Of a stretch of 64,000 nucleotides of DNA, positions 6,859 to 47,647 are shown one piece after another (within the stretch, counting starts at the first letter, position 1; every line of letters begins with the position of its first letter). The translations under genes were made by a program, and so were the position numbers. Origin of the DNA: Alphaproteobacteria bacterium (lineage in GTDB: Bacteria; Pseudomonadota; Alphaproteobacteria; MPNO01); the NCBI GenBank assembly GCA_965248835.1, contig CBDFLJ010000001.1, positions 2,208,001 to 2,272,000 of the forward strand, read 5' to 3'. Under the pieces are notes generated by a model. That model saw nothing but the letters and a program-made list of their open reading frames with translations. It was not told the origin of the DNA and did no database searches.

Positions 6859-6861
6859 GGC

Positions 6862-8010
6862 ATGGCAAGCAAGGAACGCATGCGGCTTAGCGACGCCGCC
6901 GTCGCCCGCCATCGCCCCCGCGAGCGGGAATATACGGTCTGGGACACGCGCATTGCCGGTCTCGGCGTCCGGGTTCGACCGTCCGGTGGGCGGAGTTGGA
7001 TATTCCTGCACAAGACCGGCGGTGGGACTCGCAGGATATTCCTCGGTCAGGCGGAGCTGAAGACAGTCGAGGAGGTTCGCCGCGAGTGCCATGCGCTCGC
7101 GGCGGAACTCGGGAGCGAGGACAAGCCGGACAAGATCCGCCATGCTGTCCCGTCGTTCCGGGACTTCGTCGCCGGCACATGGAAAGAGGCCCATTGCGAC
7201 CGCTACAAGCCGTCAACCCAAAGGGGCGTGCGATCCATCCTTGCCGGGCAACTGCTGCCCGCCTTCGGATCGAAACCGCTGGACCGCATATCCCCGACAC
7301 AGGTCAGGCGCTGGTTCGACATATACAGCCGAACCGCCCCGGGCGGCGCCAACCGTGCTCTCGACCTTCTCCGGCAGATCATGAACGTCGCGGTTGCCTG
7401 CAGCCATATCGACACCAACCCGGCGCGCGGCGTCAAAAGGAACCGGCGCGCGGCGCTCACGCGGTTCCTGTCGCGCGAGGAGATCGCCCGCCTGCACCGG
7501 GTGCTGGACAGGCAAACCCGAAAGAGCAGCCGGCAGCAGGCCGACGTCATCCGTCTCCTGCTTCTGACCGGGTGCCGCAAGGGCGAAATCCTCCGCCTGC
7601 GCTGGTCCGCGGTCCAAGACGACATCCTTGTGTTGGCGGACAGCAAAACCGGGCCGAGAACGGTTCCTCTCAATACACAGGCCCGGCGCATCCTCGAACG
7701 CCAGCCGCGAGGCGCGAGCTCTTTCGTGTTTCCATCGCCGCGTGACCTGGCCCGGCCACGTGGTCCCAACCTCCCGCTCTGGTATCCGGTCCGGCGGGAA
7801 GCCGGCATCGAGGATGTTCGCCTTCACGACCTGCGCCATACCCATGCGAGCCACGCGGTGATGAACGGCGTGCCGGTGCCGGTCGTCTCGCGCCTGCTCG
7901 GTCACAGCAATGTGCGTATGACGCTGCGCTACGCCCATCTTGGGGACCGGGAAATCGAGGCGGCGGCCGAGAGGGTCGGGCAATCCATCGCCGCCATCAT
8001 GGGCATTTGA
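6862..8010 (+). CDS. Tyrosine recombinase 2 (paralog of the upstream gene)
   Basis: GLGVRV; GCRKGEI, LHDLRH, LGH, RYAH; starts 3 bp after recombinase 1. Confidence 0.93.
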   Translation: MASKERMRLSDAAVARHRPREREYTVWDTRIAGLGVRVRPSGGRSWIFLHKTGGGTRRIFLGQAELKTVEEVRRECHALAAELGSEDKPDKIRHAVPSFRDFVAGTWKEAHCDRYKPSTQRGVRSILAGQLLPAFGSKPLDRISPTQVRRWFDIYSRTAPGGANRALDLLRQIMNVAVACSHIDTNPARGVKRNRRAALTRFLSREEIARLHRVLDRQTRKSSRQQADVIRLLLLTGCRKGEILRLRWSAVQDDILVLADSKTGPRTVPLNTQARRILERQPRGASSFVFPSPRDLARPRGPNLPLWYPVRREAGIEDVRLHDLRHTHASHAVMNGVPVPVVSRLLGHSNVRMTLRYAHLGDREIEAAAERVGQSIAAIMGI

Positions 8011-8111
8011 CCGTGCGGTTGCCGGTGTCGATCCAAGCGGTTCCGCGAACCGTTGTGACCAATTGCAAGATGATTGATCGTTTGGTTAGCAGCCTCCGTT
8101 TAACACTCTGC

Positions 8112-8156
8112 CTCATAACCTGAAGGTCGTTGGTTCAAATCCAACCCCCGCAACCA
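8112..8156 (+). repeat. att site A: 3' half of tRNA-Met(CAT)
   Basis: CTCATAACCTGAAGGTCGTTGGTTCAAATCCAACCCCCGCAACCA; no tRNA 5' half upstream. Confidence 0.9.
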
Positions 8157-8159
8157 AAT

Positions 8160-8193
8160 AAAGCCCGTAACTTCAAATAGTTACGGGCTTTTT
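8160..8193 (+). terminator. Intrinsic terminator after att A
   Basis: AAGCCCGTAACT-loop-AGTTACGGGCTT followed by a T run. Confidence 0.85.
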
Positions 8194-8221
8194 CGTTTTG
8201 GCGCGCCAGCGCAATTTATGT

Positions 8222-8253
8222 CCGGGGGAGCACCGGGGGAGCAAGCGGGAGCA
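8222..8253 (+). repeat. Putative integrase arm sites (CCGGGGGAGCA x2 plus a degenerate copy)
   Basis: 11-bp period; same motif at 41189-41210. Confidence 0.75.
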
Positions 8254-8342
8254 TAATCCTGCACGTTTCTGCGCGACACCGCGCACGCCGCCCCGACTGA
8301 GATCGCGACGTTGGCGGCTTACCCGCCGACCTTGGCCAACGT

Positions 8343-11300
8343 TCAGAACCGCATCTGGCCGCGCAGCATCACAGCGTGATCCGCGGCGGCATCGTTGGCC
8401 GGCTCGCGCCGCGCGCCCTCGAAGCTCAGGTCGAACGCGGGCGCGATCTCGAAGCGAATACCGATCCGGTAACGTCGCGACCCTTCGTCCGCCAGCGCGA
8501 ACCCGCCATAGGGTGTCAGCAGCCCCTGGCCGCCGAGCGCGCCGAAGCCATAGCCGAGCTCGCCGTCCAGCCGCATCTGCGGGACGTTGTCATTGGCCGT
8601 CCCATCGTCGCTCGCCAGTTCGGCGACGTCCTGGTCCCACAGACGATCCACCCCGCTCGCCGTCTCGCCCCAGGCCGGGAAGAGGCTGAACGACAGTCCC
8701 CGCCCTTCGGCGCCCGGGTCGAGGCGGAGCGAGCCGCCGAGGCCCCATTCCCGGTAATCGCTCTGCCCCGCCAGCACCCGGCCGTTGCCCTCGATCGTCA
8801 GGCCCGAAGCCGGGTCGCGATAACGCAAGCTGCCGCCGATCTCGATGCCGGTGCCGGTGATCCCGTCGCCCCCGTCATGGCGCAGACCCAGCTCCAGGGA
8901 CGGCGTCAGGGACCCGCCCGAGGCCAGCGCCTGCTCGTGGCTGCCCTCCAGCGCCAGCCGCAGACGGTTGGCGTTCACCGTCTGCTGCGCGATCAGGCCG
9001 TCGTCGCCCTCGCCCTCGACCTCGACCTGCGCCCACGAGGCCTCGCCCTTGAGCATGAGCGTCGTCGTGCCGCCCGCGATCGGCGACTCATCGGTCATCA
9101 AGGGACCGCTCGCGCCCGCCGCCGCCGTCTTGAGCGTCGTGTCGCTGCGCCTTACCGGGTAGTCGGGGTCGCCATCGCGCACCTGCGCGTCCTCGATCTC
9201 GATATCGCCCCACCCATAGCCCACCGTCGCCCAGAGACCGAGACCCTGTGGCGAGGTCCAGCCCAGATAGGGATGAACGCTGGTCATCCGGCTCTGATAG
9301 TCGCCGCGCACCGGCGACGATCCGGTACCGTCGCTATAGTCGAATTCGCCGATCGAGCGCGACAGCGCGAGCCCGGTCAGGAGATCGTCGCGCAGGCATC
9401 CGTCGATGCCGATCTGGCCGGTCAGCACCGTGCCGTCCCAGGCGAAGGCGGACTCCGTGCTCTCCAGCACCTGCCGCTCGCCCCGGCCCCACACCACCGG
9501 CCCGCCGGCGCCGGGTGCCATGCCGTCGTTCACCGCCGCGAGCGGCAGCCGGAAGGACGAGCCAGCCAGCACGTCGTCGAGGGTGAGCGTACCGTCCTCG
9601 ATCGCCGGCGCGTTGGATCGCAGCGCGCCGGCGATGGTCGACCCGCCGGCCAGCGTGTAGGCGGCCGCCTGTTTGCCGCACGCCTCGTCCATGCGCGCAC
9701 CGATCGCCCGGTTGGTCACATCGGCGAGGGTCAGCGCGTGCTTGGAGAGAATCTCGTCGTTCAGGCGCCGGAAGCGCGCCTGGACCACGGCGCCTTCAGC
9801 GTCGATGATGGTCAGCGTGGCCGCGGCCGGCGCGCCTTTCGCCACGTCCGTGGGCAGGTCACCGAAGCCCAGCGCCACCCTCACGTCATGGAAATTGTCG
9901 TCTTGTTGGGCCTGTCCCGTGGCCTCGATGGTGAAGCTCCTGGTGGTGTCGCCCATCTCCTCGAATTTGAGCGTGACGGTCCCGGTCGCAGGATCCAAGA
10001 CATCCGGATCCGTAACCGTAACCGTATAGTCGGCCGCCACGGTCCGGCCCAGTGGGGTCACCGTGATCGGGATCTCCAGCGCGTCGGCCGCTTGCTTGCT
10101 CAGCTTCACCGTCACCCTGACCGGATCGCCGCCCTCTTCGACCGCATAGGCCGCGGCGCCGAAGCGCACCGAATACACCCGCACCACGCTAATGGCCATG
10201 GCGTACGCCACGCTGTCGCTCTCGCCGTCACTGACCTTGAACCCGAACGTCGCGATAGGATCGCCGTGCGCGTTCTCCGGCGGAGTGTAGAGGAGGTTGC
10301 CCGCTTCGAGGTCGGCCGGCGTCACCTGCGGGGGTGGGGTGACGCTGGTGATGGCCGCGCCGTTAAGCGACAGCGTCCCCCGGTCATTCCCCTCGTCATC
10401 CACGGGCGGCGAGGCGATCGTCACGTGGTGCAGTGTGTTCTCTTCGATGTCCGAATAGTCGAAGTCTTTCATCGTAAAGCGGTACGATTCGTTATCGTTC
10501 ATAGACACCTTCCCGTTGTAACCCGTGGGGGGGTTGTTGAACGGCGTGGCGTTGGCGGCGGATGCGTCGCCCTCGCCGGCATCGTTCATCGCGCGCACTG
10601 CCAACGTGTACTCGGTGCCGTTTTCCAGGCTGGGAACGGTGTATCCGGTGGCATTGGTCTGGCCATGGGCGCTGTTGGGGATGTTGGTGAAGCTATCGTC
10701 ACCGTTGATGCTGACCTGGTAGCCGGTGATGGTGCTGTCGTTCGGATCGGCCCACTCAAGCTCGACCTGGCGGTAACCCGGCCCGACCGAGGAAATCTCC
10801 GGGGCGGCCGGCGGCGCAATCGGCCTGGCGGTCACGGTGGATGCCGGGCCGTTACCGGGATCGTTTACCGCGCGCACCGCAAAGGTGTACTCGGTGCCGT
10901 TGGTCAGGCCGGTCACGATGTATCCGGTGGGGGGCGCATTGGGGTCGGTTACGGGGATGTTCGCCCAGTCAGTGTAGGTATTGTCGTCGCTGTTCCTCAC
11001 CTTCGAGCGGACCTGGTACTTGGTGATCGATCTGTCGCTCGGATCGTTCCATGCAAGCACCACCTGGCCGTCGCCCGGCGTGGCCGAGGAAATCGTCGGG
11101 GCGTCCGGCACCGCAATCGGTGTGGTCCCCACGCTGGAGGCTTTGCCGTCACCGGAAGCGTTCACCGCGCGCAGCTCAAACCCGTACGCGCTGCCGTTAG
11201 TCAGGCCGGTCACGGTGTAGGTGGTGGTGGTCGCACTGCTGCCGCCGATGTCGCTCCAGTCGCCGAAATCGGCGCCGCTCACCCTCTGCCGGTACTGATA

Positions 11301-28532: not shown

Positions 28533-28925
28533 GATGGGAGCGTGCCGCGGCTGCGTATGCTCGATCGATCGGCCGCCACACGACACGCACCGGTGGTGCA
28601 TTGAGCGAGGCCAGACCGGTTCGCCTTCACCATAAGTGTTTCGTTTAGCAACAGTCTCTTAGGCCGAAATCGGCCTATGGCCTCGATCCCCTGCGCGGGC
28701 CGCGTTGTCTGTCCAAAACCGCCGTCCTGTTACCTGCGAACGGACGGCGCCTTCGCCCGAGCTATGGGATACAGGGCCGAGCCACCTTCGGTGCCAAACG
28801 AGGCGGAGGACGGTGCTACTTTGGCTGTCATACCTGAGTTCTCAAGACCCAGAAGGTCAGCCGTGCCGGGCGGGGTGCGGAAGATTTGGCTACACATTTG
28901 TGTGCCCAATGGTTACACTGCTGCC

Positions 28926-29120
28926 ATGGCAACGAAAAATGCAGGGCTTCGAATCAGAGTCGAGCGCCCGCTTCGCGACATGTTCCTAGACGCGTGCCGC
29001 TCCGAAGACAAGCCTGCGGCGCAGGTGATACGCGAGTTTATGCGCGAGTATATTGCGAAGCGCCGGGCGGAAGCGCAAGGCTCGTTATTCGCCGGGGAGC
29101 CACTGAAAAAGAAACGATAA
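28926..29120 (+). CDS. Ribbon-helix-helix protein, putative RM regulator
   Basis: LRIRVE...F..AC...AAQVIREFMREYI; ends 4 bp before mod. Confidence 0.75.
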   Translation: MATKNAGLRIRVERPLRDMFLDACRSEDKPAAQVIREFMREYIAKRRAEAQGSLFAGEPLKKKR

Positions 29121-29124
29121 CCCT

Positions 29125-30999
29125 ATGGTAGAGCAACAACATTCGAAACAAAGGGAGCGCGTCGCGGGCGAATCGCCTTCTCTCCGCGACGAGCTTGTCG
29201 CCCAGCTCTGCCTTCTGACGCCGCAGGCGTTTACTGAAGACCGCGTCGATTTCGCGAAACTCCGCGAGATCCTCGGGGATCAAATCGATGACAGGCCGGA
29301 ACGGTTTTCGTTTACATGGGCCGGGCGGCGGGACGCCGCCGCGATACTGCAGGCCCCCACGAGCGCAACGCTGGTCCCCGATACGGATGAAAGCATCAAC
29401 TTTACGAAAGCGCAGCACGCCTTCATCGAAGGAGAAAACCTTGAGACACTCAAGGTTATCTACCGGGCATATTTCGGCCGAGTGAAGATGATCTATCTCG
29501 ACCCACCCTACAACACCGGCAATGATTTCATATACCCAGACAACTTCGCCGATCCGCTCGATCATTACCTGCGCATCACCGGACAGAAGAACGGCGACGG
29601 CGAGTACATGTCATCGGCCCCCGAGACGGGCGGGCGTTATCACTCCGCGTGGCTGTCGATGATATATCCGCGCCTTGTCATGGCGCGGCAACTCCTGGAC
29701 GAGGACGGCGTGGTCTGCGTCAGCATATCCGACCACGAGGTTGCGGCGCTCAAGTTCCTTCTCAACGAGATCTTCGGCGAGGAAAACTTCATCGCCCAGT
29801 TCGTATGGAAAAGTCGCAAGTTTCCGGACTCGCGCTCGACTATGCAGGTCTCGATCGATCATGAATACCTGCTCGCATACCGCCGCAGCCGCGAAGGTCT
29901 GTTCCGCGGCAGCGAACGCGACGAGACGAAGTTCCAGAACCCGGACGACGATCCGCGCGGCCCATGGATGAGCCGCAGCATGCTGGGGCTCGCCACGGCC
30001 GAGCAACGGCCAAATCTGCATTTCCCAATCACCGATTCCGCAACGGGCATCACGTATCAGCCGGCCGCGAACCGCGGCTGGCGGTACTCCAAAAACCGAA
30101 TGCAAAAGCTGGTCGATGAAGGATGTGTCCTGTTCCCGTCGAAACCCGATGGACGGCCGCGCGAAAAGAAATTCAAGAAGGACCTCCAGCATCAGTTCAT
30201 GGCGTTCCCGACGATTATCGACGACGTTCATACTTCGCACGGGACGGAGGAAGTCCGAGAAATTTTCGGCTTCCATGCGTTTGACTTTCCCAAGCCCGTC
30301 GAACTGTTACGCCGTTTCGTCGAACAGCTTTCCTTGGACGACGATATTGTCATGGATTTCTTCGCCGGTTCCTGTTCGACGGCCCATGCCGTCATGAAAC
30401 AGAACCGCATGGACGGCGGGCACCGCCGGTATATCTGCGTGCAGCTTCCCGAGCCAATGGACGCGGACAGCGAGACCGCGCGCCGCGGCTACAAGACCAT
30501 AAGCCAGCTCGGGCTTCACAGGATTCGCATGGCGGCGAAGATGCTCGCCGATGAGGAGAGCACGATGTTGGCCGACGGCAACGGCGATGTGGCCAATCTT
30601 GCCGTGCGCGTGTTCCGACTCGACGAATCGAATATCCGCCGCTGGATCGGCGTCGAGACCAAGGACGCCGAGGCATACGCGGAACAACTCGACGCTTTCA
30701 CCGACACCCTTGTGCCTGGCTGGAAGCCGGAGAACGTCATCTGGGAGATTGCGCTGCGCGAGGGCTACGCGCTCACCTCCGAGATCGAAAAACTCGAGCT
30801 GAATGGGCAGACCGTCTGGCGCGTGACCGATCCCGAACGCGAGCAAAACTTCCATATCTGCCTTGACGACACGCTCGGCACGGAGGTTGTTCGCACAATG
30901 GGGCTGACGCGCGACGACCTGTTCGTCTGCCGCGACGTCGCGCTCGACGACACGCTCGCCGCCAACTTGGCGCTCCAGTGCCGCCTGAAGGTCCTGTGA
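29125..30999 (+). CDS. mod: Type III restriction-modification methyltransferase (Mod)
   Basis: IEGENLE, YLDPPYNTG, HSAWLSM, FPKP, DFFAGS. Confidence 0.93.
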   Translation: MVEQQHSKQRERVAGESPSLRDELVAQLCLLTPQAFTEDRVDFAKLREILGDQIDDRPERFSFTWAGRRDAAAILQAPTSATLVPDTDESINFTKAQHAFIEGENLETLKVIYRAYFGRVKMIYLDPPYNTGNDFIYPDNFADPLDHYLRITGQKNGDGEYMSSAPETGGRYHSAWLSMIYPRLVMARQLLDEDGVVCVSISDHEVAALKFLLNEIFGEENFIAQFVWKSRKFPDSRSTMQVSIDHEYLLAYRRSREGLFRGSERDETKFQNPDDDPRGPWMSRSMLGLATAEQRPNLHFPITDSATGITYQPAANRGWRYSKNRMQKLVDEGCVLFPSKPDGRPREKKFKKDLQHQFMAFPTIIDDVHTSHGTEEVREIFGFHAFDFPKPVELLRRFVEQLSLDDDIVMDFFAGSCSTAHAVMKQNRMDGGHRRYICVQLPEPMDADSETARRGYKTISQLGLHRIRMAAKMLADEESTMLADGNGDVANLAVRVFRLDESNIRRWIGVETKDAEAYAEQLDAFTDTLVPGWKPENVIWEIALREGYALTSEIEKLELNGQTVWRVTDPEREQNFHICLDDTLGTEVVRTMGLTRDDLFVCRDVALDDTLAANLALQCRLKVL

Positions 31000-31005
31000 G
31001 GCGCC

Positions 31006-33743
31006 ATGGAATTCCGCTTCGACGCAACGCAGGAATACCAGCTCGCAGCCATCGAAGCCGTCTGCGGTCTGCTTGAAGGGCAGGCCTATGTCCGCAGCGA
31101 GCTGATCATACCGGACAACGGCGCGTTCTCCGCGATCGCCAACCGGCTCGACTTGTCGGAGGATACGCTGCTCAAGAACCTCCATACGGTTCAGGAGGAC
31201 GCCGGGATAGAAGCCGACGACGGATTGAAGCTTATCACTGGTATGTTGCTCGACGAAGGTCCGGACGACAGGGACTCCGAGGTTCAGTTTCCAAACTTTT
31301 CCGTCGAGATGGAGACCGGGACGGGGAAGACCTATGTTTACTTGCGCACCTCGATGGAGATGTTCCGACGTTTCGGCCTGCGCAAGTTCATCATCGTCGT
31401 ACCGTCCGTGGCCGTGCGCGAGGGCGTTTACAAGGCGCTCCAGGTCACCGAAGCTCATCTCAACGCGCTCTACGACAATCCGCCGTACCGCTACTACGTC
31501 TACGATTCGGCCAATCTGAGTCAGGTGCGCCAGTTTGCGCTCTCCGACGGGCTCGAGATCATGGTCATGACCATCGACGCCTTTGCGCGCGCCGAGAACG
31601 TCATCCGCCAATCGACGGACCGGCTGCAGGGCGAGCGGCCGCTAAGCCTGATCCAGGCCAGTCGGCCCGTACTGATCCTCGATGAGCCACAGAACATGGA
31701 AAGCGAGAACCGCATTTCGGCGCTCGCCAGCCTGCACCCGTTGTTCGCGTTGCGCTACAGCGCGACGCACCGGAATCCCTACAACCTCATCTACGGTCTT
31801 ACGCCTTACGACGCCTACCGGCAGGGACTTGTTAAGCGGATCGAGGTCGCCTCAGTAATCGAAGACGTCGTTGCGCTTGAGACAACCAGAACCAGCCCTT
31901 CCTGCGCCTCGACGAGATCAAAATCCAGTCGAAGAAGCCCGCAGCGCGGCTCGGAATTCACAAGCTGATGAAAAGCGGTGCGATCAAGGAAACCGTGCTG
32001 ACCATTAAGGGCGACGACGACCTAGAGAAGAAGACCGGGCGTGTTGATTACCAAGGCTATGTCGTCGAAGAAATCAGCTACGGCGGCAAGTTTGTTCGCT
32101 TCGCTAACAACGTCGAGCTTCGCATCGGTGAGGCGGTTGGCGTCGAGAAGGTGGCGATTTTCGAGGCGCAGCTTCGCTATACGATCGAGGAACATTTTCG
32201 CAAACAGGCGCGCTTCCGGGACCAAGGGATCAAGGTCCTTTCCCTGTTCTTCATCGACAGGGTTAACAACTATGTCGCGGAGGACGGGGTCATACGGGAA
32301 CTGTTCGACGGCGCCTTCAACGAATTGAAGGCGTCGTATCCAGAGTGGCGCGACGGGAATCCCAAAGACGTGCGGGCCGCATATTTCGCCACGAAGGCAA
32401 AGAGAGGCGGTGCGGTCGAGTACCTAGATACGACCGGCAAGAGCAAGGCGGACGAGGAAGCGTTCAGCCTAATCATGCAGCGCAAAGAGGACCTGCTGTC
32501 GTTCGAGGAGCCCGTGTCCTTCATCTTCTCGCACTCGGCCCTGCGAGAAGGCTGGGACAATCCGAATGTTTTCCAGATTTGCACCATGCGGGAGGTCGGC
32601 TCCGATACAGAACGTCGCCAGCAGGTCGGCCGCGGTGTTCGCCTACCAGTCAACCAGGAGGGCGAACGCATACAAGACGAGCGGATCAATGTGCTGACCG
32701 TCGTCGCAAGCGAGACCTACGAGCGGTTCGTCGCCGGACTGCAAAGCGAAATCGAGGCCGAATACGGCAAGGACGGCACGCCGCCGCCACCGCCGGATGC
32801 GCGCAAGAAGACGACGCTGCGGTTGCGCAAGGCGCATACGCTGAAGCCCGAGTTCAAGGAACTGTGGGACCGTATCAGGTACAAGACGCGCTACGCAGTC
32901 ACCATCGACAGCCACCGGCTTGTCGAGGATGTCCTGCCCGGCCTTGATGGCGCAGCGATCCGCAAACCGCGCGTGTCGATCTCGAAGGCGGAAGTGATCG
33001 CCAACGACAAGGATACGTTTGAGGCGCTGACGCAGAGCGGCGCGCGGACCGCCATCGATCTTGCGGGCCGATACCCGCTTCCGAACCTCGTCGAGATCAT
33101 GGAAAACCTGATGGAGAACACCTCACCGCCGATGCGCGTGAGTCGCCGGACGTTGTTGGAGATATTTCGGCGCACGGGCAACCGCGAGGCAGCGCTGGAC
33201 AATCCCCATGAATTCGCGACGGTGGCCATCGGCATCGTCAAGAGCAAACTCGCCGACCAGCTCGTCGAGGGGATTCGCTACGAAAAGCTCGACAAATGGT
33301 ACGAAATGACACTTTTCGACTCCGAGATCGAGACTTGGGCCGATTACATCGTGCCGAGTACGGAACGGAACGGCGCCGGTGGCACGCATATCTACGACGG
33401 CGTCCCGTTCGACTCCGAGACCATCGAGAAGCCGTTTATCGAAGCGCTGGAGAGGCGGAAGGACGTGAAGCTTTATGTCAAGCTTCCATCCTGGTTCACC
33501 GTCGCGACGCCGATCGGCGCCTACAACCCGGACTGGGCGATCGTCATGGAGAACCCGGACGGCAGCGACCTGCTCTATCTCATCCGTGAAACCAAGGGCA
33601 CGCTCGACCTCGACGCGCTGCGCCCGGACGAGAAGCGTAAGATTTTGTGCGGACGGAAACATTTCCGGGACACGCTGGAGATGGGGCAACGCGGCTACCG
33701 CGTCGTCACGGAAACCTCTCAGTTACCGGATGGAGGTGTCTAA
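31006..33743 (+). pseudogene. res: Type III restriction endonuclease (Res), frameshifted near 31867-31880
   Basis: METGTGKT, DEPQ, YSATH in the first frame; EGWDNPN, QQVGRGVR, YNPDWA, ETKG in the second. Confidence 0.9.
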
Positions 33744-33791
33744 TGCGGAATGGATGCTCCATGCCGACAAATTGCTTATCGAGCCTTCGCC

Positions 33792-35624
33792 ATGCGAATT
33801 GATCGCGTCCAGATAGAGGAAGGCTTCCTTGACGGTCTCGACGTATCGTTTGCATCGGGGCTTAACGTCATTATCGGCGAGCGCGGGACAGGTAAGACAT
33901 CGCTTATCGAACTCGTCCGGTTTTGCCTCGGTGTGCAGGGGTCCACGCCAGACTCGGATAAACGGAGCCTGGATCACGCGCGCTCCATACTGGGGAGCGG
34001 TCGGGTGACGGTCTCGCTGTCCGATGGCGAGCAGAAAATACTGGTGACACGCACCGCTTCCGATGAGTCGCCCCGCGCATCGGCTCCGTACGTTCGCCCG
34101 ATCATTTTTTCGCAGACTGAAATTGAAACCGTCGGACTTCAGGCTCAAGGTCGAATCGGGCTGCTCGACGGTTTCGCTGGCGACCAAAAGGAAACGGAGG
34201 CCCGCGAGTCCGAGGCGGCTTCAGAAGTACGCTCCCTCACTGCCGAAGCGGAAGCGCTGTGTCGCGAGATCGACGAACTCGCGAGCCAGGTAGAGGAAAT
34301 CCCCGCCCTTAACAAGCAAATTGCCGAACTCGTCCCGCAGGAACACAAACTGGCCAAGGTTTCCGCGGACGTCAACGAAAAGAAGAACCAGCTCGACGCG
34401 ATCTCCGCCAATATCGCCGCATCCGCCGTCGGCGTCGGCGCGATCGAGCGATTTCACCATTCCGTTTCCAGGTGGCAATCAACGCTTTCGTCCGCTCCAC
34501 CCCCTCTTGAACCTTGGCCGGAAGACGCCGGGCCCGATCCGCTCGAGAAATGTCGCGCAAGCGTCAAGCGCGCCAAAAATCACCTGAACAAGGCTCTCCG
34601 GGAACTACAGAGCGCCCTGTCCGAAGCGGAGTCGCATCTTCGATCATCGCACGGCAACAAGCTCAACATCGAAGATCGTGCCAGGCAATTGCGCAAGGAG
34701 GTCGAGACTTTTCAGGAAGGGGCGGGTGCGATTGTCCGTCAGGGGCAGCAGCTCCGAGAGCGCAAGGCACAACTAGAATCGCTCAAGAACGTACTAGCCG
34801 AGCGGCAGAAAGCGCTCAAGTCCCTTCTTGCGCAGCGCAACGCCGCTCTGGACCGACTGGATTCGATCAGGGAACAGCGCTTCAGCGTGCGCAACGCTGT
34901 GGCCACGCAACTGACCGAAACCCTCGGACCGCGCATCCGCGTCAAGATCTCCCGCGCTGGACAGTTCGAAGCCTTTGCAGCTGCCATAGCCGCCGCGCTG
35001 CGCGGCAGCGGCCTGCGCTACAACGAACTTTCCTCGACTCTCGCCGGAAACGTCAGTCCGCGCGAGCTGCTCGAAGCGGTGGACACAAATGATTTTGATC
35101 TTATCGCCGAAGCCACAGGAATCACGAAGGACCGGGCCGCGCGCGCGTTAGGTCAGTTGCGCGAATGCGATCTCGGTGCACTGGCCACTGTTGCCGTAGA
35201 GGATACCGTCGCGTTGCAGCTTCTCGACGGCGCGGATTACAAGGGCATCGTCGAGGTGTCCACCGGGCAGCGCTGTACAGTGGTTCTTCCGCTCGTCCTC
35301 CGGCATACCGAACGAGTCCTCATCGTCGATCAACCCGAGGACCATATCGACAACGCGTTCATCACGGATACGCTGATCGTCTCTGTACTCGCGCGGGGAC
35401 CGGACAGCCAGATCATCTTCTCGACGCATAACGCGAACATCCCTGTGCTGGGGAACGCGGATCGGGTGGTACAGCTCGGCTCCGACGGGAGGCGCGGGTT
35501 CCCCGTCCTGGCATCGAATCTCGACGATCCGCCCGTCGTTAACGCGATAACGACTGTCATGGAAGGTGGCGCCGACGCCTTCAAACAGCGCGCGACATTC
35601 TACAGCCGCTACGAAACGCCATGA
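33792..35624 (+). CDS. ABC/SMC-like ATPase (TrlF/Ppl-type, no PHP domain)
   Basis: GERGTGKT, FSQTEIE, coiled coil, STGQ, DQPEDHIDN, THNANIP. Confidence 0.88.
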   Translation: MRIDRVQIEEGFLDGLDVSFASGLNVIIGERGTGKTSLIELVRFCLGVQGSTPDSDKRSLDHARSILGSGRVTVSLSDGEQKILVTRTASDESPRASAPYVRPIIFSQTEIETVGLQAQGRIGLLDGFAGDQKETEARESEAASEVRSLTAEAEALCREIDELASQVEEIPALNKQIAELVPQEHKLAKVSADVNEKKNQLDAISANIAASAVGVGAIERFHHSVSRWQSTLSSAPPPLEPWPEDAGPDPLEKCRASVKRAKNHLNKALRELQSALSEAESHLRSSHGNKLNIEDRARQLRKEVETFQEGAGAIVRQGQQLRERKAQLESLKNVLAERQKALKSLLAQRNAALDRLDSIREQRFSVRNAVATQLTETLGPRIRVKISRAGQFEAFAAAIAAALRGSGLRYNELSSTLAGNVSPRELLEAVDTNDFDLIAEATGITKDRAARALGQLRECDLGALATVAVEDTVALQLLDGADYKGIVEVSTGQRCTVVLPLVLRHTERVLIVDQPEDHIDNAFITDTLIVSVLARGPDSQIIFSTHNANIPVLGNADRVVQLGSDGRRGFPVLASNLDDPPVVNAITTVMEGGADAFKQRATFYSRYETP

Positions 35625-37450
35625 CGCGGCAAGAGGCGCTAGACACGCTCTTGTCCAGCTCTGCACATGACCGGCTGAAGGCCGTGCGCTTCCTTGTACA
35701 CAACAGCAACCCGTCCGATCTTCAGGCCCTGCGTGACACTCTTAGAGCCGATCCGGAAAGTTTGAATCTATGGTGAGTGTGTTGCGGCGAGTCTGCGCAG
35801 CATGATGCGGATCATGGCGAGTCGGATGAAGGCGACGACGGATCGAACGTGACGTTCGAAGTCGCGAGCGAGGCGCCTGTTGCGGCTGATCCAGGCGAAG
35901 GTGCGTTCGACAATCCAACGCTTTGGCAGCACCTCGAAGCGGGGCACGTCGTTGCGCTTGACGATCTCGAGCCGCCACCCCCCGGTCTTGGCGACAGTCG
36001 CGGCCATCTTCGGTCCCTGATAGCCGCCGTCGGCGTAGATCACCTCGATGAATGGGAACCGTCGCCGGGTGCGGCGCAAGAGCTCGTGGGCACCGTCGCG
36101 ATCCTGAACGTCGCCGGAATGCACCACGATGCCCAGCATCAGGCCGAGCGTGTCGACCATGATGTGCCGCTTGCGACCGGTGACCTTCTTGCCCGCATCG
36201 AAGCCTTGATCGTCGATCGACGCCCCCCTTTTTGCGCCGCCTTGGCGCTCTGGCTGTCGATGACCGCGGCCGACGGGCTGGCTTCGCGTCCTTCCTCATC
36301 GCGCACCGCGACGTAGAGTTCATGATGGATCCGCTCCAGCGTGCCATCCCACTCCCATAGATCGAAATAGTCGTACACCGTCGACTTCGGCGGCAGATCC
36401 TTGGGCAGTGCATTCCACTGGCAGCCCGTGGACAGCACGGTGAAGATGCCGTTCAGAACCTCGCGCACGTCGACTGAGCGCTTGCGCCCGCCGCGCTTGG
36501 CAGGCGGGATCATTGGCGCGATCAGCGCCCACTCGGCGTCGGTCAGATCACTCGGATAGCGAAGTCCGCGACGCTCCGCCGCGCGGCGGTGTTCCGCAGT
36601 CCACATCGGGCTTCCTCCTGTAAACCGGATGCCCAGCACAGAATCACAAACGATTCTTCCGATTCAAGAACTTTCCGGAAGGGCTCTTAGAAGCGAAACC
36701 GTTTCCTATGTACGCACCGGTCTGGAGCTTGCTATCAAGCGGGCGTCGAATATTGCATCTCCTGAAGTTGAATCTACCTCGGAGGAATTTGAGATTCCTC
36801 CAGATGTACGGGGCCAAATTCGGAACGAGGTCACGGAGGAAGTCACCGGGCAAATCCTGCACGAGATTGCGTCCCCCGTCGGTCTGATCGCTTCAGCCGC
36901 CGCGCGTGAAATCCCTGACTATGAGCATTCTAGGACCAGAAAACATGTAGAAAACCTGAAGCGGGTTTTCGAGGCGATCGAACAACTGAAAAGCGCTGCG
37001 GCGGTTCCAAGGCCCGAAGAATTCGATCTGGCCGAACTGCTTGCCGAGATTGTATCGGAGGCAGTCGGAAGCGACCCAGTACAAGTCTCGTTGCATGGCA
37101 CAAAGCCGATGTTGGTCACATCCGACCGCGCCCTGCTACGACTGGCGGTCTCCAACGGCATACGAAATGCAGTTGAAGCCGTTACTGGCGCTCCCGGCGA
37201 CGAACCACATCCGATCATTGTGGCCTGGGGCGCAACCGACGTCGATTACTGGGTCACGGTGTTGGATCGTGGCCCTGGGGTGGTCGGTCCGGCGGAATCC
37301 GCCTTCGGTATCGGCAAGACCACAAAGAAGGGACATAGCGGGTTCGGACTGACCATCGCCAGGCAGGCGATCGAGACGTTGGGAGGCATGTGCACGTTGC
37401 AGCCTGTGACGGAAGGCGGCGCCCGGTTCGAGTTACGGTGGGAACGATGA
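35621..37450 (+). pseudogene. Soluble histidine kinase with a helical (HEAT-like) N-terminus, interrupted by IS5
   Basis: Removing the IS restores DTL-RSETVSY; LHEIASP H-box, NGIRNA N-box, DRGPG, GFGL. Confidence 0.85.
35745..36686 (-). mobile_element. IS5-family element (IS1031-like), 942 bp, TTA target duplication
   Basis: IRs GAGCCGATCCGGAAAGTT / AACTTTCCGGAAGGGCTC; orfA YPSDLTDAEW and orfB KRWIVERTF joined at an AAAAAGGGGGG slip site (~36223-36233). Confidence 0.93.
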
Positions 37451-38874
37451 CGCTGCATTTGCTCATCGTTGAGGACGACGAAGACTTCGTCGAAGAGCTG
37501 CGCGAGACTATAGCGCTCCTGCCCGGTGACAGCGATATCCGAGTCGCCCGCAGCCGAGACCAAGCGTACGAGATGTTGGAGGACGGTTTTCTTGACCTGG
37601 TGACACTCGATCTCAAAATACCGACGGTCAGCGGCGCTCTCGATGCTCACCCGGAACACGGGCATGCCGTCTTCAACCGGATTCGTAAGGTTGCGCCCGG
37701 CACGCCGATCTTCGTGCTGACCGGCTCGCCTGCCGAGGACTTTCTTCCTGAGCTGTTGATGAACCAGCAACGGATCGACGTCTGGAGCGAAGGGGAGGCG
37801 ACCGGGACCATCCTATTCCTCAAGAAATACGACATTGACAGGTGTCCGGAAGTTCTGAAGCCGATCGCACAGGCGATCGATCGCCTGTCAGATGTAGAAC
37901 TGGAGGGAGGGGGTCTCAACTTGAGTCTCGCCGAAGACCGGCTGATTCGGATATTCGCGAGGAAGTTTCAGGGGGTGCGTTGCACCGTATCTGAACTCGG
38001 GGGCGGCCTGTCGGGCGCCCGCGTCATCCGCCTCCGCGTTACCGACCACCAGGGCGTACTGGTGCATGATGCCGTGGCGAAACTCTCGACGCCCGCTGAT
38101 ATTCAGAGGGAGGGCGGCTGCTACGACGCACACCTGACCCGGCTCGCCCCTGCCGCTACGCCGAGAATGCTTGCTACCCTGAAATACGGAGCACACAAAC
38201 TGGCAGGGATTTTCTTCGGTCTTGCTGAGGGATCGGACGCATCCGCGTTCGATATCGCCGGCAGTTCGCCTGAGAGGGCCGAAGCCATAATTCGAAGCGT
38301 GGAAACCGCGATGGCACCATGGGTAAACGGGGTTCCGGAGACACGCACGACGATCCGGCGGATTCGACAGCGGCTTCTCAATGACCAGTACCTCGACCAA
38401 GTTCGGGATTCATTTGATCTCGACTGGATTCAGAATTTCGAACACCGAGAAATACAAACGCGGTGGGCGTGCAGTCACGGGGACCTTCACGGTAAGAATA
38501 TTATTGTGTCACCCGCCGGCACGGAGTTGATCGACTACGGCGATGTGGGCGATGGCCCGGCGAGCTTGGACCCTATCACACTCGAACTGAGTTTGCTCTT
38601 TCATCCCGACGCACCCGACAAGGACGGCCCATGGCCCTCCGCTTTACAGGCTAACGCGTGGGGGGATCTGGAGGTCTACCTCGACCGCTGTCCGTTCCCC
38701 GATTTCGTGCGGGAATGTCGAGCCTGGGCCTTGCGCGTGACCGCCGGGAACAGGGAAGTTGCGGCGTCGGCATACAGCTACCTGGTAAGGCAGCTCAAAT
38801 ACGAAGATACGGACAAGGATCTCGCTCTCGCTTTACTTGACGGTGTCCGATCCTTTTACGACAGAAGCTCATGA
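37447..38874 (+). CDS. Receiver domain fused to an APH/protein-kinase-like phosphotransferase
   Basis: LIVEDD...LDLKIP...VLTG; GGGLSGARV, HGDLHGKN, IDYG. Confidence 0.85.
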   Translation: MTLHLLIVEDDEDFVEELRETIALLPGDSDIRVARSRDQAYEMLEDGFLDLVTLDLKIPTVSGALDAHPEHGHAVFNRIRKVAPGTPIFVLTGSPAEDFLPELLMNQQRIDVWSEGEATGTILFLKKYDIDRCPEVLKPIAQAIDRLSDVELEGGGLNLSLAEDRLIRIFARKFQGVRCTVSELGGGLSGARVIRLRVTDHQGVLVHDAVAKLSTPADIQREGGCYDAHLTRLAPAATPRMLATLKYGAHKLAGIFFGLAEGSDASAFDIAGSSPERAEAIIRSVETAMAPWVNGVPETRTTIRRIRQRLLNDQYLDQVRDSFDLDWIQNFEHREIQTRWACSHGDLHGKNIIVSPAGTELIDYGDVGDGPASLDPITLELSLLFHPDAPDKDGPWPSALQANAWGDLEVYLDRCPFPDFVRECRAWALRVTAGNREVAASAYSYLVRQLKYEDTDKDLALALLDGVRSFYDRSS

Positions 38875-39146
38875 TCGTCATGTCGCAATAACAAACGCCG
38901 TTCTTCCACGCGCTCTGGCGCGCCACCGCTGCCGGTCCGACGCAATGCTCGAAGCAGAAGCTGGTCGACTGAATATAGAAGCACACGTCCAACGGCGTGA
39001 GGTGCTGGAGGCCCTCTCTGGCACGCCGATCGCGGCCTACATTACTCTCCGGGATTTCGAGCGAGCGGGCCCGCGGTCTTGCATGTCGGTGCACTCCGGG
39101 GGCTTCCCGGCCTTAACCGGCTCCGGCGACTTCGATCCATGGACCG

Positions 39147-39402
39147 TCAATTCACCACGGCATCGGCGTCTGGCTCCTGTGCCGGACCGCCGTTGAGGAC
39201 CGACGCGGTATTGGATGTCACCCGCTCGGCCGCGGCCTTGACCGGGTCCGCGGCGAGGTGGGCGTAGCGCGCCGTGGTCTGGACCTGGGTGTGGCCGAGC
39301 AACTTGCCGATCATCGGCAGGCTTTCGCCAAGGGCCACGCCGCCCGACGCGAAGCTGTGGCGGAGGTCGGTGAGGCCGACCGGCAAATCGAGATGCCGCC
39401 TT
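39147..39402 (-). pseudogene. Duplicate 3' fragment of the 39826-41163 integrase
   Basis: DLRHSFAS...GKLLGHTQVQTTARYAHLAADPVKAAAERVTSN, near-identical to the full gene. Confidence 0.88.
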
Positions 39403-39546
39403 TGGGCCGCGACGAACAGAAACGTCATCCGCCAGTTTCCCGCGGCCTGCCGCGCGCACGACCTCCCGAACACGCGCACGATTTCGCTCCCTCATGATTC
39501 CATAGTGATTCCATGGGCCGAAACTTCGATGCTGGCCAGACAAGCA

Positions 39547-39579
39547 AAAGCCCGTTAAGTCTTTGACTTAACGGGCTTT
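39547..39579 (-). terminator. Intrinsic terminator after att B
   Basis: AAAGCCCGTTAAGTC-TTT-GACTTAACGGGCTTT. Confidence 0.85.
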
Positions 39580-39582
39580 ATT

Positions 39583-39627
39583 TGGTTGCGGGGGTTGGAT
39601 TTGAACCAACGACCTTCAGGTTATGAG
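39583..39627 (-). repeat. att site B: inverted 3' half of tRNA-Met, identical to att A
   Basis: Exact reverse complement of 8112-8156. Confidence 0.9.
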
Positions 39628-39825
39628 GTGACATCTCCGCCGCAGCGCGCGCGGGCCGTGCCTCCATCCCAAAGCCGCCTCGAGACTGGCGGACACGTCG
39701 TCTGCTACCTGCTTGACCGGATCCGCCGCGAGGTGGGCGTAGCGCGCCGAGGTCTCGACCTGGGAGCGCCCCGGGGGGCTTCCCGGCCTTGAACGAGCCC
39801 GGACGACGCTGACACGATAGACCCG

Positions 39826-41163
39826 TCAAATCACGGCAGCATCGGTGTCTTGATCTTGCCCGCCGCCGAGGATGGACGCGATATTGGACGTCACCCGCTC
39901 GGCCGCGGCCTTGACCGGGTCCGCGGCGAGGTGGGCGTAGCGCGCCGTCGTCTGGACCTGGGTGTGGCCGAGCAGCTTGCCGATCATCGGCAGGCTTTCG
40001 CCAAGAGCCACGGCGCCCGACGCGAAGCTGTGGCGGAGGTCGTGGATACGGACATCCACAAGACCGGCCCGCAATTCGAGATGCCGTTCTCGGGCCTCGG
40101 CGAGGCACTCATCGTAAGTCGGCTCCCGGCCGAGGTCGCGCTCGAGCCGCTCCACCAGGGCGGCCGCCTCGCTGCCCACGGCGCGGGCCCAGAGGCGGAC
40201 CGTCGCGCGCTTGCGCATTCGCTGCCAGGGCGGTTGCAGGTCGGTCCGGCGCGAGCGCGGAATGCGGCCGCAGATGACCCAGGGATTGCCGAGCTGGCGC
40301 GTGATGCCCGCGAGCACATCGAGGGCGGGTTGGCCGAGATGAACTACGCGCGCTCCGGTCTTGGTGTCGGACAGCCGCAGGCAGTGGCCGGCCTCATCGA
40401 CATCATCCCACCTCAGCGTCATGATCTCGTTGAGCCGGCAGCCGGTGAAGATCAGCAACCGGATGGCGGCGACGGCGTATTCGTCCGCGAGACCTTCCCG
40501 CTCGGCCCGCGCCAACGCTTCGCCCAGGGCGGCGAGTTCGGCCGGGCTCAGGTAGCGCTCGCGCTTCTCCTCGGGGTACTTCTTGATATGCCGGCGCGGG
40601 TTCGATCCGTCCGGCCGCAGACCCCACATCTCCGCAAGGTTGAACATCTTGGAGATGATCTCGAGGTTTCGGTTGGCCTGGTAGGGGAGGTGGCGGAGCC
40701 CGTGGTGGAAGCGGGCGATGTCGGCCCGGACCACGTCGGCCACCGTGAGCCGGCCCAGGGCCGGGAGGATGAAGCGGCGGAGGTTGCGGCGGTATTCCCG
40801 CGCCGTGCTTGGCTTGAGACGAACGGCGATGTGCTCCTCGTCGAACCGCTTGGCGAGGTCGGCGACGCTCAACGCACCGCGATCGACTCGCCTGTCGTGG
40901 GCCGGATCCTCACCACGCTCGACGGCCGCCAGGGCCTGGCGGGCCAACCGCCGTGCTTGCTCGGGCGTCAGGACGCCATGCCGGCCGAGCGTGAACTTAC
41001 GGGACTGCCGGCGCCCATTCCGGTACTGGATGACATAGGCCCTTACTCCGCTGGGCTTGACTCGAACGCCGAAGCCCGGAAGGTCCTTGTCCCACACCCA
41101 CAGGTCCGTTCCGGCCTCCGGGGTGAGGTCTTCGACGAGCCGCTTGGTGATCTTCGCCTTCAT
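39826..41163 (-). CDS. Phage-type integrase (arm-binding domain plus tyrosine recombinase)
   Basis: GFGVRV, TGCRLNEI, IHDLRH, LGH, RYAH; GGAGA RBS; next to att C. Confidence 0.94.
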   Translation of the reverse strand: MKAKITKRLVEDLTPEAGTDLWVWDKDLPGFGVRVKPSGVRAYVIQYRNGRRQSRKFTLGRHGVLTPEQARRLARQALAAVERGEDPAHDRRVDRGALSVADLAKRFDEEHIAVRLKPSTAREYRRNLRRFILPALGRLTVADVVRADIARFHHGLRHLPYQANRNLEIISKMFNLAEMWGLRPDGSNPRRHIKKYPEEKRERYLSPAELAALGEALARAEREGLADEYAVAAIRLLIFTGCRLNEIMTLRWDDVDEAGHCLRLSDTKTGARVVHLGQPALDVLAGITRQLGNPWVICGRIPRSRRTDLQPPWQRMRKRATVRLWARAVGSEAAALVERLERDLGREPTYDECLAEARERHLELRAGLVDVRIHDLRHSFASGAVALGESLPMIGKLLGHTQVQTTARYAHLAADPVKAAAERVTSNIASILGGGQDQDTDAAVI

Positions 41164-41340
41164 CGGTCTCCTCCGTTTGGCCTGCTCCCCGGGGGAGCAC
41201 TGGGGGAGCAGGAGGGCGCGTTTCGGCGCGCAAAAGGGTGAAGATCAGAGTAAGGCGTTCAAAGAAAAAATCAAGTAAGTCTTTGTTATTTCATACTATT
41301 TCGTATTTGTTCGTAGTAACGAGAAAGTACTGAGCCACGA

Positions 41341-41385
41341 CTCATAACCTGAAGGTCGTAGGTTCAAATCCTACCCCCGCAACCA
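41341..41385 (+). repeat. att site C: 3' half of tRNA-Met
   Basis: CTCATAACCTGAAGGTCGTAGGTTCAAATCCTACCCCCGCAACCA; differs from A by a compensatory T-stem pair. Confidence 0.9.
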
Positions 41386-41839
41386 AAACAAATACCTGAA
41401 AATGCTGATGTTTTCAGGGGTTTTCTTATCCTAGAACATGTTGGAAATATTCAACTGGGAATCTATTGGGAATCACGCGGAATCTGGAGGGTTCTGTGAG
41501 GTCGCGCAGCTCGAACGGCGGAGGATGGCGCGGGACGCGAGCTCATTGAAGCCGGATTGAACGAAGCCGCGGGATGGCGGGCGGGCTATGGGGATTGTGG
41601 CTGCGGCGCCTGGTCCGAGAGGCCGGAATGGACCGGTGGCATGTCTGACGGATCGGCCTCATCGAGTGGGTGGCGGCCGGGTCTGGGATGCCGGTCCGGA
41701 CGACGGGCTGCGGCTTCACTTCGGCGGCTACGATTGTGGCGTCGTGCGAGGCGGGCAGCGTCGCGGGATAGACCGGCTCGGTATCCGACGTGCAGGGTGC
41801 TGGGCATTTGTGGTCCGGTGCTGTCCGACGGGCGGAGTG

Positions 41840-42490
41840 TCATGAGCTGTCCTGCCAGAAGGATGGCCGGCATGGCTCCGGCCGGGGCAGGATGGTGAGG
41901 ATGATCATGGTTCCGTTGCAGCACGGGCAGCGGTCGGGCGGGTGAGCCGGGACGGTGTCCCTGGCCTGCTCGGCGGCCGGTTGCGGTGGCGGGGCGTCGA
42001 GCAGTTTGCGGCAAAGCGCGAGCTTCGCCGCGCGGTGTCCGTTGGCGAGGAAGCCGTAGTGGCGGATGCGATGGAAGCCGTCCGGCAGGGTGTGCAGTAG
42101 AAAGCGGCGGATGAACTCGTCTGCGTCCAGGGTCATGACCTTCGTCTTGCCATGGTGGCGATAGTCCTTCCAGCGGAAGGCGACCTCGTCATCGGTTACG
42201 CCGACCAACCGGGAGTTGGCGATCGCGACCCGATGGGTGTAGCGGCCGAGATAGGCGAAGACCTGCTCGGGGCCGCCGAAGGGCGGCTTGGCGTATACGA
42301 CCCATTCGAGGCGACGCAACTCGCGGAGGCGGCTAATGAAGGCCTCAGGATCCGCGAGCCCGGCGAGCGCGCCAAAGAAGCCCAGACCGCCGGCCTCGAA
42401 GGCGGCGTGCAGTGCGTCGAGGAACAGGCGGCGGAAGAGGCGCGAGAGCACGCGGACCGGCAGGAAGAACCCCGGCCGGCACGGCACCCA
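41840..42490 (-). pseudogene. IS91-family (Y2) transposase C-terminal fragment
   Basis: FFLPVRVLS, YLGRYTHR, FIRRFLLH.LP.GF.RIRHYG. Confidence 0.85.
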
Positions 42491-47501: not shown

Positions 47502-47647
47502 GTTAGTCAAGGATTGGGGCCGCCGCATTTTGCCGCCAATAAAGCTATCGTTGGTCGAATAACATGCACACAGTGAGTGAATCATCACAAATCCTAAACA
47601 TCGACGACAAGGATATCGGTATTTCTGAGGAAAAATATGCATATCTA

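Follow-up and report, generated by a model that had tools for sequence, protein, structure and literature searches.

A Probable Defective Lambda-Like Prophage with Accreted Cargo Between Half Copies of the Initiator tRNA Gene in an Alphaproteobacterial Genome

Features of the Interval

The window analyzed here, a stretch of 64,000 nucleotides (nt) from an uncultured alphaproteobacterium (G000:C1:2208001-2272000), belongs to a 4.9-Mb assembly of two contigs (C1 and C2) that is 100% complete by markers, with 9.5% contamination. At positions 8112-41388 it carries a 33.3-kb interval that is framed by two half copies of the initiator tRNA gene (tRNA-fMet) and holds a tyrosine integrase gene (int), genes of a lambda-like phage, and cargo genes. 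A preliminary description of this DNA had taken the interval for a gutted prophage that kept its attachment (att) sites, integrase, and cos-like DNA, and that might be packaged in trans by a helper phage in the manner of a satellite. The features that define the ends and the phage part of the interval are listed below; lengths of proteins are in amino acids (aa), ORF stands for open reading frame, and G031 is a relative described in the next section.

8112-8158, plus strand: attL core S1, the 3' half of initiator tRNA-fMet from the anticodon loop, with no tRNA 5' half upstream
8160-8195, plus strand: terminator-like hairpin after the tRNA half, part of the P' arm, read from the sequence
8224-8253, plus strand: P' arm repeats, GGGGGAGCA twice and GCGGGAGCA, at 11/10-bp spacing and +112/+123 from the core start; putative arm-type sites
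17333-18322, plus strand: SMC/ABC-type AAA ATPase cut to 329 aa (643 aa in G031), with junction 1 of the two putative deletions at 18247
21130-23630, plus strand: two phage DNA methyltransferases (MTases), N6_N4_Mtase and a ParB-N/MTase fusion (Pfam, PHROGs)
23498-24076, plus strand: MerR-type helix-turn-helix (HTH) protein, 192 aa (Pfam MerR_1, E 1.2e-6)
24073-24387, plus strand: fusion ORF over junction 2 (24264-24274), in which a DUF7220 N-terminus is followed by the C-terminal ~30-40 aa of a gpL-like DUF1833 minor tail protein
24388-27164, plus strand: tail tip, NlpC/P60 protein (gpK-like, 134 aa) and gpJ-like protein (804 aa)
27623-28532, plus strand: lysis genes, a phrog_6637 membrane protein (one transmembrane-like segment, putative holin) and a phage lysozyme
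39826-41163, minus strand: tyrosine integrase, 445 aa, with an Arm-DNA-bind_3 N-terminal domain, the catalytic motifs, and a 46-aa in-frame insertion
41182-41210, plus strand: P arm repeats, inverted TGCTCCCC and GGGGGAGCA twice, -150/-139 relative to the core and 28 bp before the int start codon
41341-41388, plus strand: attR core S3, tRNA-fMet 3' half, compensatory T-stem variant

The half copies noted in the preliminary description are genuine: 8112-8158 and 41341-41387 form a direct repeat identical at 45/47 nt that runs from the anticodon loop (CTCATAA) to ...GCAACCA and represents the 3' half of an initiator tRNA. Both mismatches lie in the T-stem and are compensatory (GTTGG/CCAAC versus GTAGG/CCTAC). 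Neither end copy is complete, and neither ARAGORN nor Rfam finds a whole tRNA-Met in the window. The sole complete initiator tRNA gene found in the genome, with a C1xA72 mismatch, stands at C2:471340-471416 after a 5S rRNA gene (the only 5S copy found) and holds the only tRNA-fMet 5' half found. Against this single rRNA-linked gene stand four orphan 3' halves (C1:192573-192617 and window positions 8112, 39627, and 41341); behind each come a hairpin and an 11-bp-phased repeat word particular to that half. One of them, the core copy S2 (39583-39627), is inverted, lies inside the interval, and comes with a hairpin of its own and another repeat word, ATGGAATCA, present twice. S2 sits between two integrase C-terminal fragments, forming with them the scar of another tRNA-fMet element:

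39147-39773, minus strand: integrase C-terminal fragments, repeats, hairpin, and inverted S2; the first fragment is at 39147-39479, the two ATGGAATCA repeats at 39495-39514, and the second fragment at 39628-39773
41456-41486, plus strand: P'-type repeats of other specificity outside the element, TGGGAATCT, TGGGAATCA, and GCGGAATCT, at +115/+126/+137

The repeats at 41456-41486 are the start of a neighboring element's remnant, and the right-flank 11-bp-phased repeats (GGGAATC type) recur at the orphan tRNA half C1:192617. The interval is composite, with an inverted third att copy, integrase fragments, and an insertion sequence (IS), and it is one member of a tandem array of tRNA-fMet elements, an array now detached from the tRNA gene and rearranged. 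S2, the adjoining integrase fragments, the IS at 35738-36690, and two integrase genes left of 8112 had escaped the preliminary description. The initiator tRNA gene in these alphaproteobacteria is thus a reused landing site for several integrase specificities.

Phage Genes and Comparison with a Larger Relative

As the preliminary description stated, methylases, tail tip, and lysis genes remain (Pfam, PHROGs), and the interval yields no terminase, portal, capsid, tape-measure, or replication genes by Pfam, PHROGs, or tblastn. From the tail module, tail tube and tape measure are not present, and only the gpL C-terminal stub, the gpK-like NlpC/P60 protein, and the gpJ-like protein are left, the last with two viral relatives at 56-59% identity. 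The MerR-type gene stands among the late genes and not beside int. As a candidate for a Nu1-like small terminase, its product (23498-24076) was rejected: it has no PHROG match, and the true terS (phrog_57) is directly before terL in G031.

In the closely related genome G031, a 77.5-kb region (G031:C4:62362-139917) is colinear with window 8107-41386, and its integrase is 97% identical. The aligned segments are:

Window 8107-18247 to G031:C4 62362-72502, 99.8% identity
Window 18247-18678 to G031:C4 87980-88410, 95.8% identity
Window 20533-24274 to G031:C4 91161-94893, 87% identity
Window 24264-28529 to G031:C4 114499-118659, 87% identity
Window 39547-41386 to G031:C4 138083-139917, 95% identity

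Relative to the window, G031 has an additional 15.5 kb at 18247 and 19.6 kb at 24264-24274. The 15.5-kb block encodes the rest of the AAA ATPase, a kinase-type ATPase, a receiver protein, AAA_24, a helicase, a methylase, a PD-(D/E)XK nuclease, and an AAA_25 helicase; the AAA_24, helicase, PD-(D/E)XK, and AAA_25 genes have no match in the window's own genome. The 19.6-kb block encodes terS (phrog_57), a gpA-type terL, a lambda-family portal, an S49 protease, and capsid protein E, as well as the tail tube, the tape measure, an RCC1-repeat protein, and a complete 180-aa DUF1833 protein. The components of a functional lambda-like siphophage that are lacking in the window (terS, terL, portal, protease, and major capsid protein) are thus present in the G031 version. 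At junction 2, the fusion ORF keeps positions 121-150 of the 150 positions of the DUF1833 profile (Pfam), or residues 141-180 of the 180-aa G031 protein (tblastn). Junction 2 has the microhomology CTGnnCGAGG, and junction 1 has about 2 bp. Because the junction genes are truncated in the window, the change would have been deletion in the lineage of the window and not insertion in G031. At 28530-39546 (11 kb), where the guanine-plus-cytosine (GC) content is 59-60%, the window has no counterpart in G031, and this part behaves like a variable cargo region next to int.

The colinear 77.5-kb version bears out the idea of a gutted prophage retaining att sites, integrase, and cargo. Taken together, the interval is very probably a grounded (defective) lambda-like temperate siphophage with accreted material, and its history looks like ordinary prophage decay rather than that of a helper-dependent satellite.

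A side observation concerns the RCC1-repeat protein of the G031 tail block (576 aa; L091:17394-19124, the same as G031:C4:111894-113624), which lies between the tape measure and the gpL-like gene and has a truncated copy at G000:C2:515939-516742.

Repeats at the Ends of the Interval

The preliminary description had seen the same repeat with an 11-bp period inside both ends and had read it as cos-like DNA; the repeat itself is present as described, the reading is not upheld. GGGGGAGCA has four exact matches in the 64 kb, all on the plus strand, as two pairs with 11-bp spacing (8224/8235 and 41191/41202). The number expected in the window is 0.76, and a count of four was reached in 1/100 shuffles. 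The 4.9-Mb genome has 16 matches, clustered only at the two ends of the element.

A scan of genome contigs for the integrase family gave 72 related loci, of which 49 were examined and 23 left out (mostly short or partial). A complete tRNA-Met is absent from all 72. In 32 of the 49 loci the int start is preceded, at a distance of 180-290 bp, by a tRNA-fMet core on the opposite strand; in eight the core is farther away, and nine have none. In 23 of the 32 loci the best pair of 9-mers at exactly 11-bp spacing has one mismatch or none, compared with 1.6% of 593 control segments from the same loci, and in 27/32 the best 11-bp-spaced pair lies 150-154 bp from the core, some of these loci being close kin and not independent. 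The repeat word itself changes by lineage (e.g., GGGGGAGCA, TGGAATCA, TGGAAGCA, CGGAAGCA, GGTAGCA). In G037, a 22.6-kb element with a 56% identical integrase lies between a complete tRNA-fMet and a 3' half, and GGAAGCA pairs occur in its P arm and beside the tRNA at +110/+121 (the left pair of the window is at +112/+123). Because of the fixed repeat position across the family, the arm-binding domain of the integrase, and the matched pairs in G037, the GGGGGAGCA repeats are most likely integrase arm-type binding sites and not a packaging site.

A cos is the place where terminase binds and nicks the DNA, as defined by the ends of virion DNA; by analogy with lambda, it is expected next to terS. 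The G031 region from the deletion edge to terL (94894-97400), where cos would be expected, has no similarity in the window or in its genome, and the expected cos position would have been lost together with terS in the 19.6-kb deletion. As a candidate for cos, GGGGGAGCA was accordingly rejected, given its arm-site position throughout the family and the deletion of the terS/terL region with no remaining similarity. A striking repeat adjacent to att can pass for cos; the 32-locus comparison points to arm-type integrase sites instead, and an own 11-bp-phased word for each specificity, at a fixed distance from the core, offers a useful rule for annotating att sites in this integrase family.

Searches of IMG/VR found the GGGGGAGCA repeat pair in four contigs, two of them with the pair beside a different tRNA-Met-like half; within the DNA retrieved, none of the four is similar to the integrase or to the window. 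Separately, one IMG/VR contig (L098:2085-2370) has a different tRNA-Met-like 3' half with TGCTCCCCCC twice upstream and CTCCCCAC twice downstream, an arrangement that resembles the attP of an unrelated phage whose two arms both carry phased repeats.

Integrase and Excision

The integrase was correctly described as intact. Its 445-aa reading frame is full length and free of stops, it matches Pfam Phage_integrase (E 1.8e-17), and residues 20-92 correspond to PF13356 Arm-DNA-bind_3 (E 8.8e-15). The motifs TGCRLNE, TKTGA, HDLRH, LLGH, and RYAHL align with those of 10 homologues, so that all residues of the R..K..HxxR..H/W..Y pattern are in place. The 46-aa insertion in the catalytic domain is common only to the closest relatives (87-96% identical). 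To excise, integrases of this type need a directionality factor. The genome has no match to the AlpA excisionase and three to HTH_17, all outside the window, which therefore has no excisionase of the AlpA or HTH_17 type. Excision of the interval may be possible, as far as integrase and arm sequences go, but is unsupported.

Immediately left of 8112, window 5603-8017 holds a tandem of genes for tyrosine integrases of 373 and 382 aa, each of which has an arm-binding domain. This pair is a repeated unit with 99% identical copies at C2:644774-647014, C2:1725191-1727047, and C1:214437-215019, and with many copies in each of four relatives (G011, G013, G015, and G017; 73-75% identity). The recombinase pair may be the basis of a mobile element.

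Sister Genomes and the Search for a Helper

Related genomes show the same island in other states of rearrangement. In G033 the same ends are 33.7 kb apart, and a single, different deletion joins G031 position 79418 to 117418. The integrase match in G034 stops at residue 201, with the gene of the FN3-repeat autotransporter (see below) 5.4 kb away, and in G032 the middle is inverted relative to the ends. The FN3 gene stands beside S1 in 4/4 relatives (G031-G034) at 92-100% identity. The differing deletions in the same island point to independent decay; read in this way, the island offers a clean case of independent prophage decay in which the FN3 autotransporter gene located at the end survives each time. 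The G033 junction was also considered as a reconstituted attP of the same element and rejected, its P' repeats being GTGGACGCA and not GGGGGAGCA. In G002, of the same genus, the two window flanks are 370 kb apart, and flanking synteny defines no empty site.

The relatives G031-G033 are a prophage-rich lineage, with 3, 8, and 5 near-full-length terL copies, respectively (counting rows with a query coverage of 95% or more and an identity of at least 70%), plus many fragments. A surplus of tail tips over terminases was entertained as a sign of selection on the basis of raw counts (terL 4, 11, and 7 versus gpJ 7, 35, and 13 in G031, G032, and G033) and dropped when near-full-length copies were compared (terL 3, 8, and 5 versus gpJ 3, 8, and 6).

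The suggestion of a helper prophage in the genome found no match among the terminase and capsid queries. The window's genome gave no match to the G031 gpA-type terL, to PF05065, PF03354, or PF03237 (Pfam Phage_capsid, TerL_ATPase, and Terminase_6N), or to the G031 terS, terL, portal, capsid, tube, and tape-measure proteins, and no resident helper phage was detected with the terminase and capsid queries tried. The only other remnant in the genome (C2:511.9-516.7 kb) extends from the RCC1 C-terminus to gpJ, plus one small ORF after it.

Cargo Genes and Flanking Sequences

The preliminary description had named an FN3 autotransporter, an ankyrin protein, and defense genes as cargo, and all are present, the first recognized by PF03797 and the last as a type III restriction-modification (R-M) system:

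8343-16700, minus strand: FN3-repeat autotransporter, 2785 aa, signal-like at the N-terminus, with 17 fn3 stretches and, at the C-terminus, a beta-domain whose last residue is F
18860-19858, minus strand: ankyrin-repeat protein, 332 aa, with a hydrophobic, signal-like segment at the N-terminus; cargo of low GC
29125-33743, plus strand: type III R-M system, Mod intact (624 aa), Res in two ORFs (31006-31968 and 31968-33743)
33750-38874, plus strand: conflict-system-like genes, comprising a 624-aa AAA ATPase, the IS, a HATPase_c ORF, and a receiver-APH-TCAD9 protein

The PF03797 autotransporter beta-domain was found when the last 350 aa were scanned alone (E 2.2e-8, 34.6 bits with a cut-off of 26); the match is weak, covering profile positions 38-205 of 255, and is unlisted in the scan of the whole protein. 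The signal-like N-terminus was read by eye, and a search of PDB sequences with the C-terminus returned nothing meaningful. A paralogue on C2 is 93% identical. A type III system consists of Mod and a Res that unites helicase and endonuclease in one chain. Mod covers profile positions 4-607 of 621; of the two Res ORFs, one matches positions 1-276 of a 989-position profile and the other its part from 310 through to the C-terminal endonuclease domain. The IS (35738-36690, 945 bp) has a 223-aa ORF with no Pfam match and occurs at least 12 times in the genome, its copies being up to 100% identical. The 273-aa HATPase_c ORF (36629-37450) has its start inside the IS.

Of six sequencing runs listed, three contain half or more of the sampled words. 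Window 17000-36999 was compared with the assembled contigs of four sequencing runs (X2-X5) from one sample, in which rare excision products would not be visible. The IS is absent from some contigs of X2-X5, which join 35737/35738 to 36683/36684, and its insertion is therefore polymorphic. The summed depth is 300-1300 over the phage-like part and 4-30 over the unique part, a sum that is not a copy number. Also seen were contigs of runs X2-X4 that are without 14 nt at 31866, at full depth; by frame arithmetic, the shorter form would join the res ORFs in-frame, and the difference is either a real polymorphism or an assembly error.

To the right of the interval, window 41400-56300 contains transposase genes and fragments (Y2_Tnp, two IS630-type DDE_3, a Mutator-family fragment, DUF772, and DDE_Tnp_1_4), helicase pieces, a Schlafen/AlbA_2 protein, and a NYN-domain protein, the last of which matches the PADLOC candidate HEC-09 (E 3.5e-40). 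Window 56326-64000, with sat, aprBA-like, and peptidase genes, recurs in inverted orientation at G000:C1:13376-21046 (99% identity), at the start of C1. By arithmetic, the ends of C1 form a ~21-kb inverted duplicate, either a real inverted repeat where the assembly broke or an assembly artifact.

Origin of the Interval

The features of the interval suggest the following course of events. A P4-type tyrosine integrase would have integrated the phage by crossing over in the anticodon loop of the initiator tRNA-fMet, the phage itself bringing a copy of the 3' half of the tRNA with the terminator, and with GGGGGAGCA as arm sites at -150/-139 in the P arm, where they overlap the int promoter region, and at +112/+123 in the P' arm. 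One illegitimate deletion would then have removed the replication module (15.5 kb), and a second would have taken 19.6 kb from just after the DUF7220 gene to the last gpL-like codons, including terS, terL, and the expected cos. Left over would be the integrase and two att arms, the methylases, tail tip, and lysis genes, and a cargo of the FN3 autotransporter, the ankyrin protein, the type III R-M system, and a conflict-system-like set with an inserted IS. Such an element would presumably no longer be packageable.

Several observations weigh against this history. The phage part is only 87% identical to G031, compared with 95-99.8% at the ends, and G031 is therefore a cousin and not a direct ancestor. 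A lambda-type head is expected to hold less than the 77.5-kb G031 island, so that even in G031 the stretch between the att sites would hold more than one phage genome. S1 has no tRNA 5' half, so that the present attL is not natural, and the inverted third att copy and integrase fragments lie within the interval. In a G039 element the tRNA and int have different repeats beside them, leaving matched arms in one of the two distant elements checked. Both deletion junctions exist only in the present assembly, no contig bridging 18247 or 24264-24274 is among the listed pieces of runs X2-X5, and the genome has 9.5% contamination and the inverted duplicated ends of C1.

Some of these points would fit a patchwork of unrelated insertions in the tRNA-fMet tandem array, in which the ends would be unpaired and this integrase would never have been that of the prophage remnant. 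The inverted core with its different repeats and two integrase fragments agrees with this, as do the drop in GC to 59-60% over 28.6-39 kb (the part not homologous in G031), the varying identity to G031 by segment, and the neighboring elements that abut both sides. The same repeat word at both ends, clustered nowhere else in the genome, the end-to-end order kept in G031 and G033, and the matched P/P' repeats of the independent G037 element make a patchwork improbable. S1 and the inverted S2 were also considered as possible ends of an inversion. The evidence on the junctions leads to another concern, that the assembly, being derived from a metagenome, falsely joined prophage sequences present in many copies, so that the deletions would be spurious and a complete prophage would occupy the real locus. 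In the community, phage modules occur in multiple copies, and the contamination, the duplicated C1 ends, and the lack of a bridging contig among the listed pieces would all be understandable on these grounds. Such an artifact is nevertheless very improbable: both junctions give open reading frames with truncated genes, junction 2 has microhomology, terL, portal, and capsid sequences are nowhere in an assembly that is complete by its markers, and G033 shows that such deletions really occur in the island.

The preliminary description had proposed that the element excises and is packaged in trans by a helper that reads GGGGGAGCA as cos, spreading host-interaction cargo as a satellite does. An intact integrase with matched repeats at both ends, a length of 33 kb that would fit a phage head, and sister genomes with near-full-length terL copies of the same phage family are compatible with this proposal, as is the far greater abundance of the phage-like part in runs X2-X5 (the summed depth given above, not a copy number). 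The repeats, however, occupy the family-wide arm-site position; terS, terL, and the expected place of cos are deleted with no similarity left; and the window's own genome has no terminase or capsid match. The window has no AlpA or HTH_17 gene, and the deletions in sister genomes differ and are haphazard, with no conserved reduced form. By the definitions in the part of PMC10085698 used here, no satellite core gene apart from the integrase was found, and tail genes are present. Helper packaging of the interval is extremely improbable.

If, as favored here, the interval is a decayed prophage, there is a slender chance that it may still excise, given the intact integrase and matched arms, and that its cargo (FN3 autotransporter, ankyrin protein, and R-M system) could move between strains upon superinfection by a complete relative, either recombining into the superinfecting phage or being carried by transduction that sets out from the neighbor, and not by way of a cos of its own. 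The sister genomes hold 3-8 near-full-length copies of the phage family. If such movement takes place, decayed tRNA-fMet prophages would be a shared cargo pool for a prophage-rich lineage.

Comparison with Known Systems

The integrase resembles the P4-type (DUF4102 / Arm-DNA-bind_3) tyrosine integrases, reportedly classified by Williams in 2002 as targeting tRNA genes at the anticodon loop, in its arm-binding N-terminus, an identity block that begins at the anticodon loop, an element that brings the tRNA 3' half and terminator, and phased direct repeats on both arms. It differs in the placement of int, which lies at the attR end and points away from the core, and in the 46-aa insertion in the catalytic domain. 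The autotransporter is like those of type Va in its signal-like N-terminus, long repetitive passenger, and C-terminal PF03797 domain ending in an aromatic residue; unlike these, its passenger consists of at least 17 FN3 modules with Ig/cadherin-like domains and is not a beta-helix.

Phage satellites comprise the families PICI, cfPICI, P4-like, and PLE, with median sizes of about 10-18 kb, and, in the portion of the source drawn on here, these families need a primase-replicase together with terS or capsid-remodeling genes and exclude tail and holin genes (PMC10085698). The interval is similar to them as an integrase-bearing island with defense cargo and an incomplete set of virion genes. It is dissimilar in its 33.3 kb, compared with some 10 kb for PICI and cfPICI, in the tail tip and lysis genes that are 'forbidden' in the satellite models of that portion, and in having no matches for primase-replicase, terS, capsid-remodeling (or capsid-redirecting), Psu/Delta/Sid, or alpha-primase genes. 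Neither Pfam nor PHROGs gives a primase-replicase in 8112-41388, and the P4-like Psu, Delta, Sid, Ash/epsilon, and alpha primase-helicase have no Pfam or PHROG match among the ORFs scanned, a result obtained without the satellite-specific profiles of PMC10085698. With regard to the PICI regulators (AlpA, MerR, or Stl), the MerR_1 HTH protein at 23498-24076 is present and AlpA is not.

The closest counterparts are the defective ('grounded') lambdoid prophages. As in the prophages described in the accessible part of a review (PMC6379469), essential modules have been lost by deletion, end genes, morons, and defense genes have been kept, and IS and neighboring insertions have been gathered. Relative to the examples in that part of the review, the interval stands apart in its uncultured alphaproteobacterial host, its initiator tRNA site, its 8.4-kb FN3 autotransporter cargo, and an array detached from the only tRNA-fMet gene.

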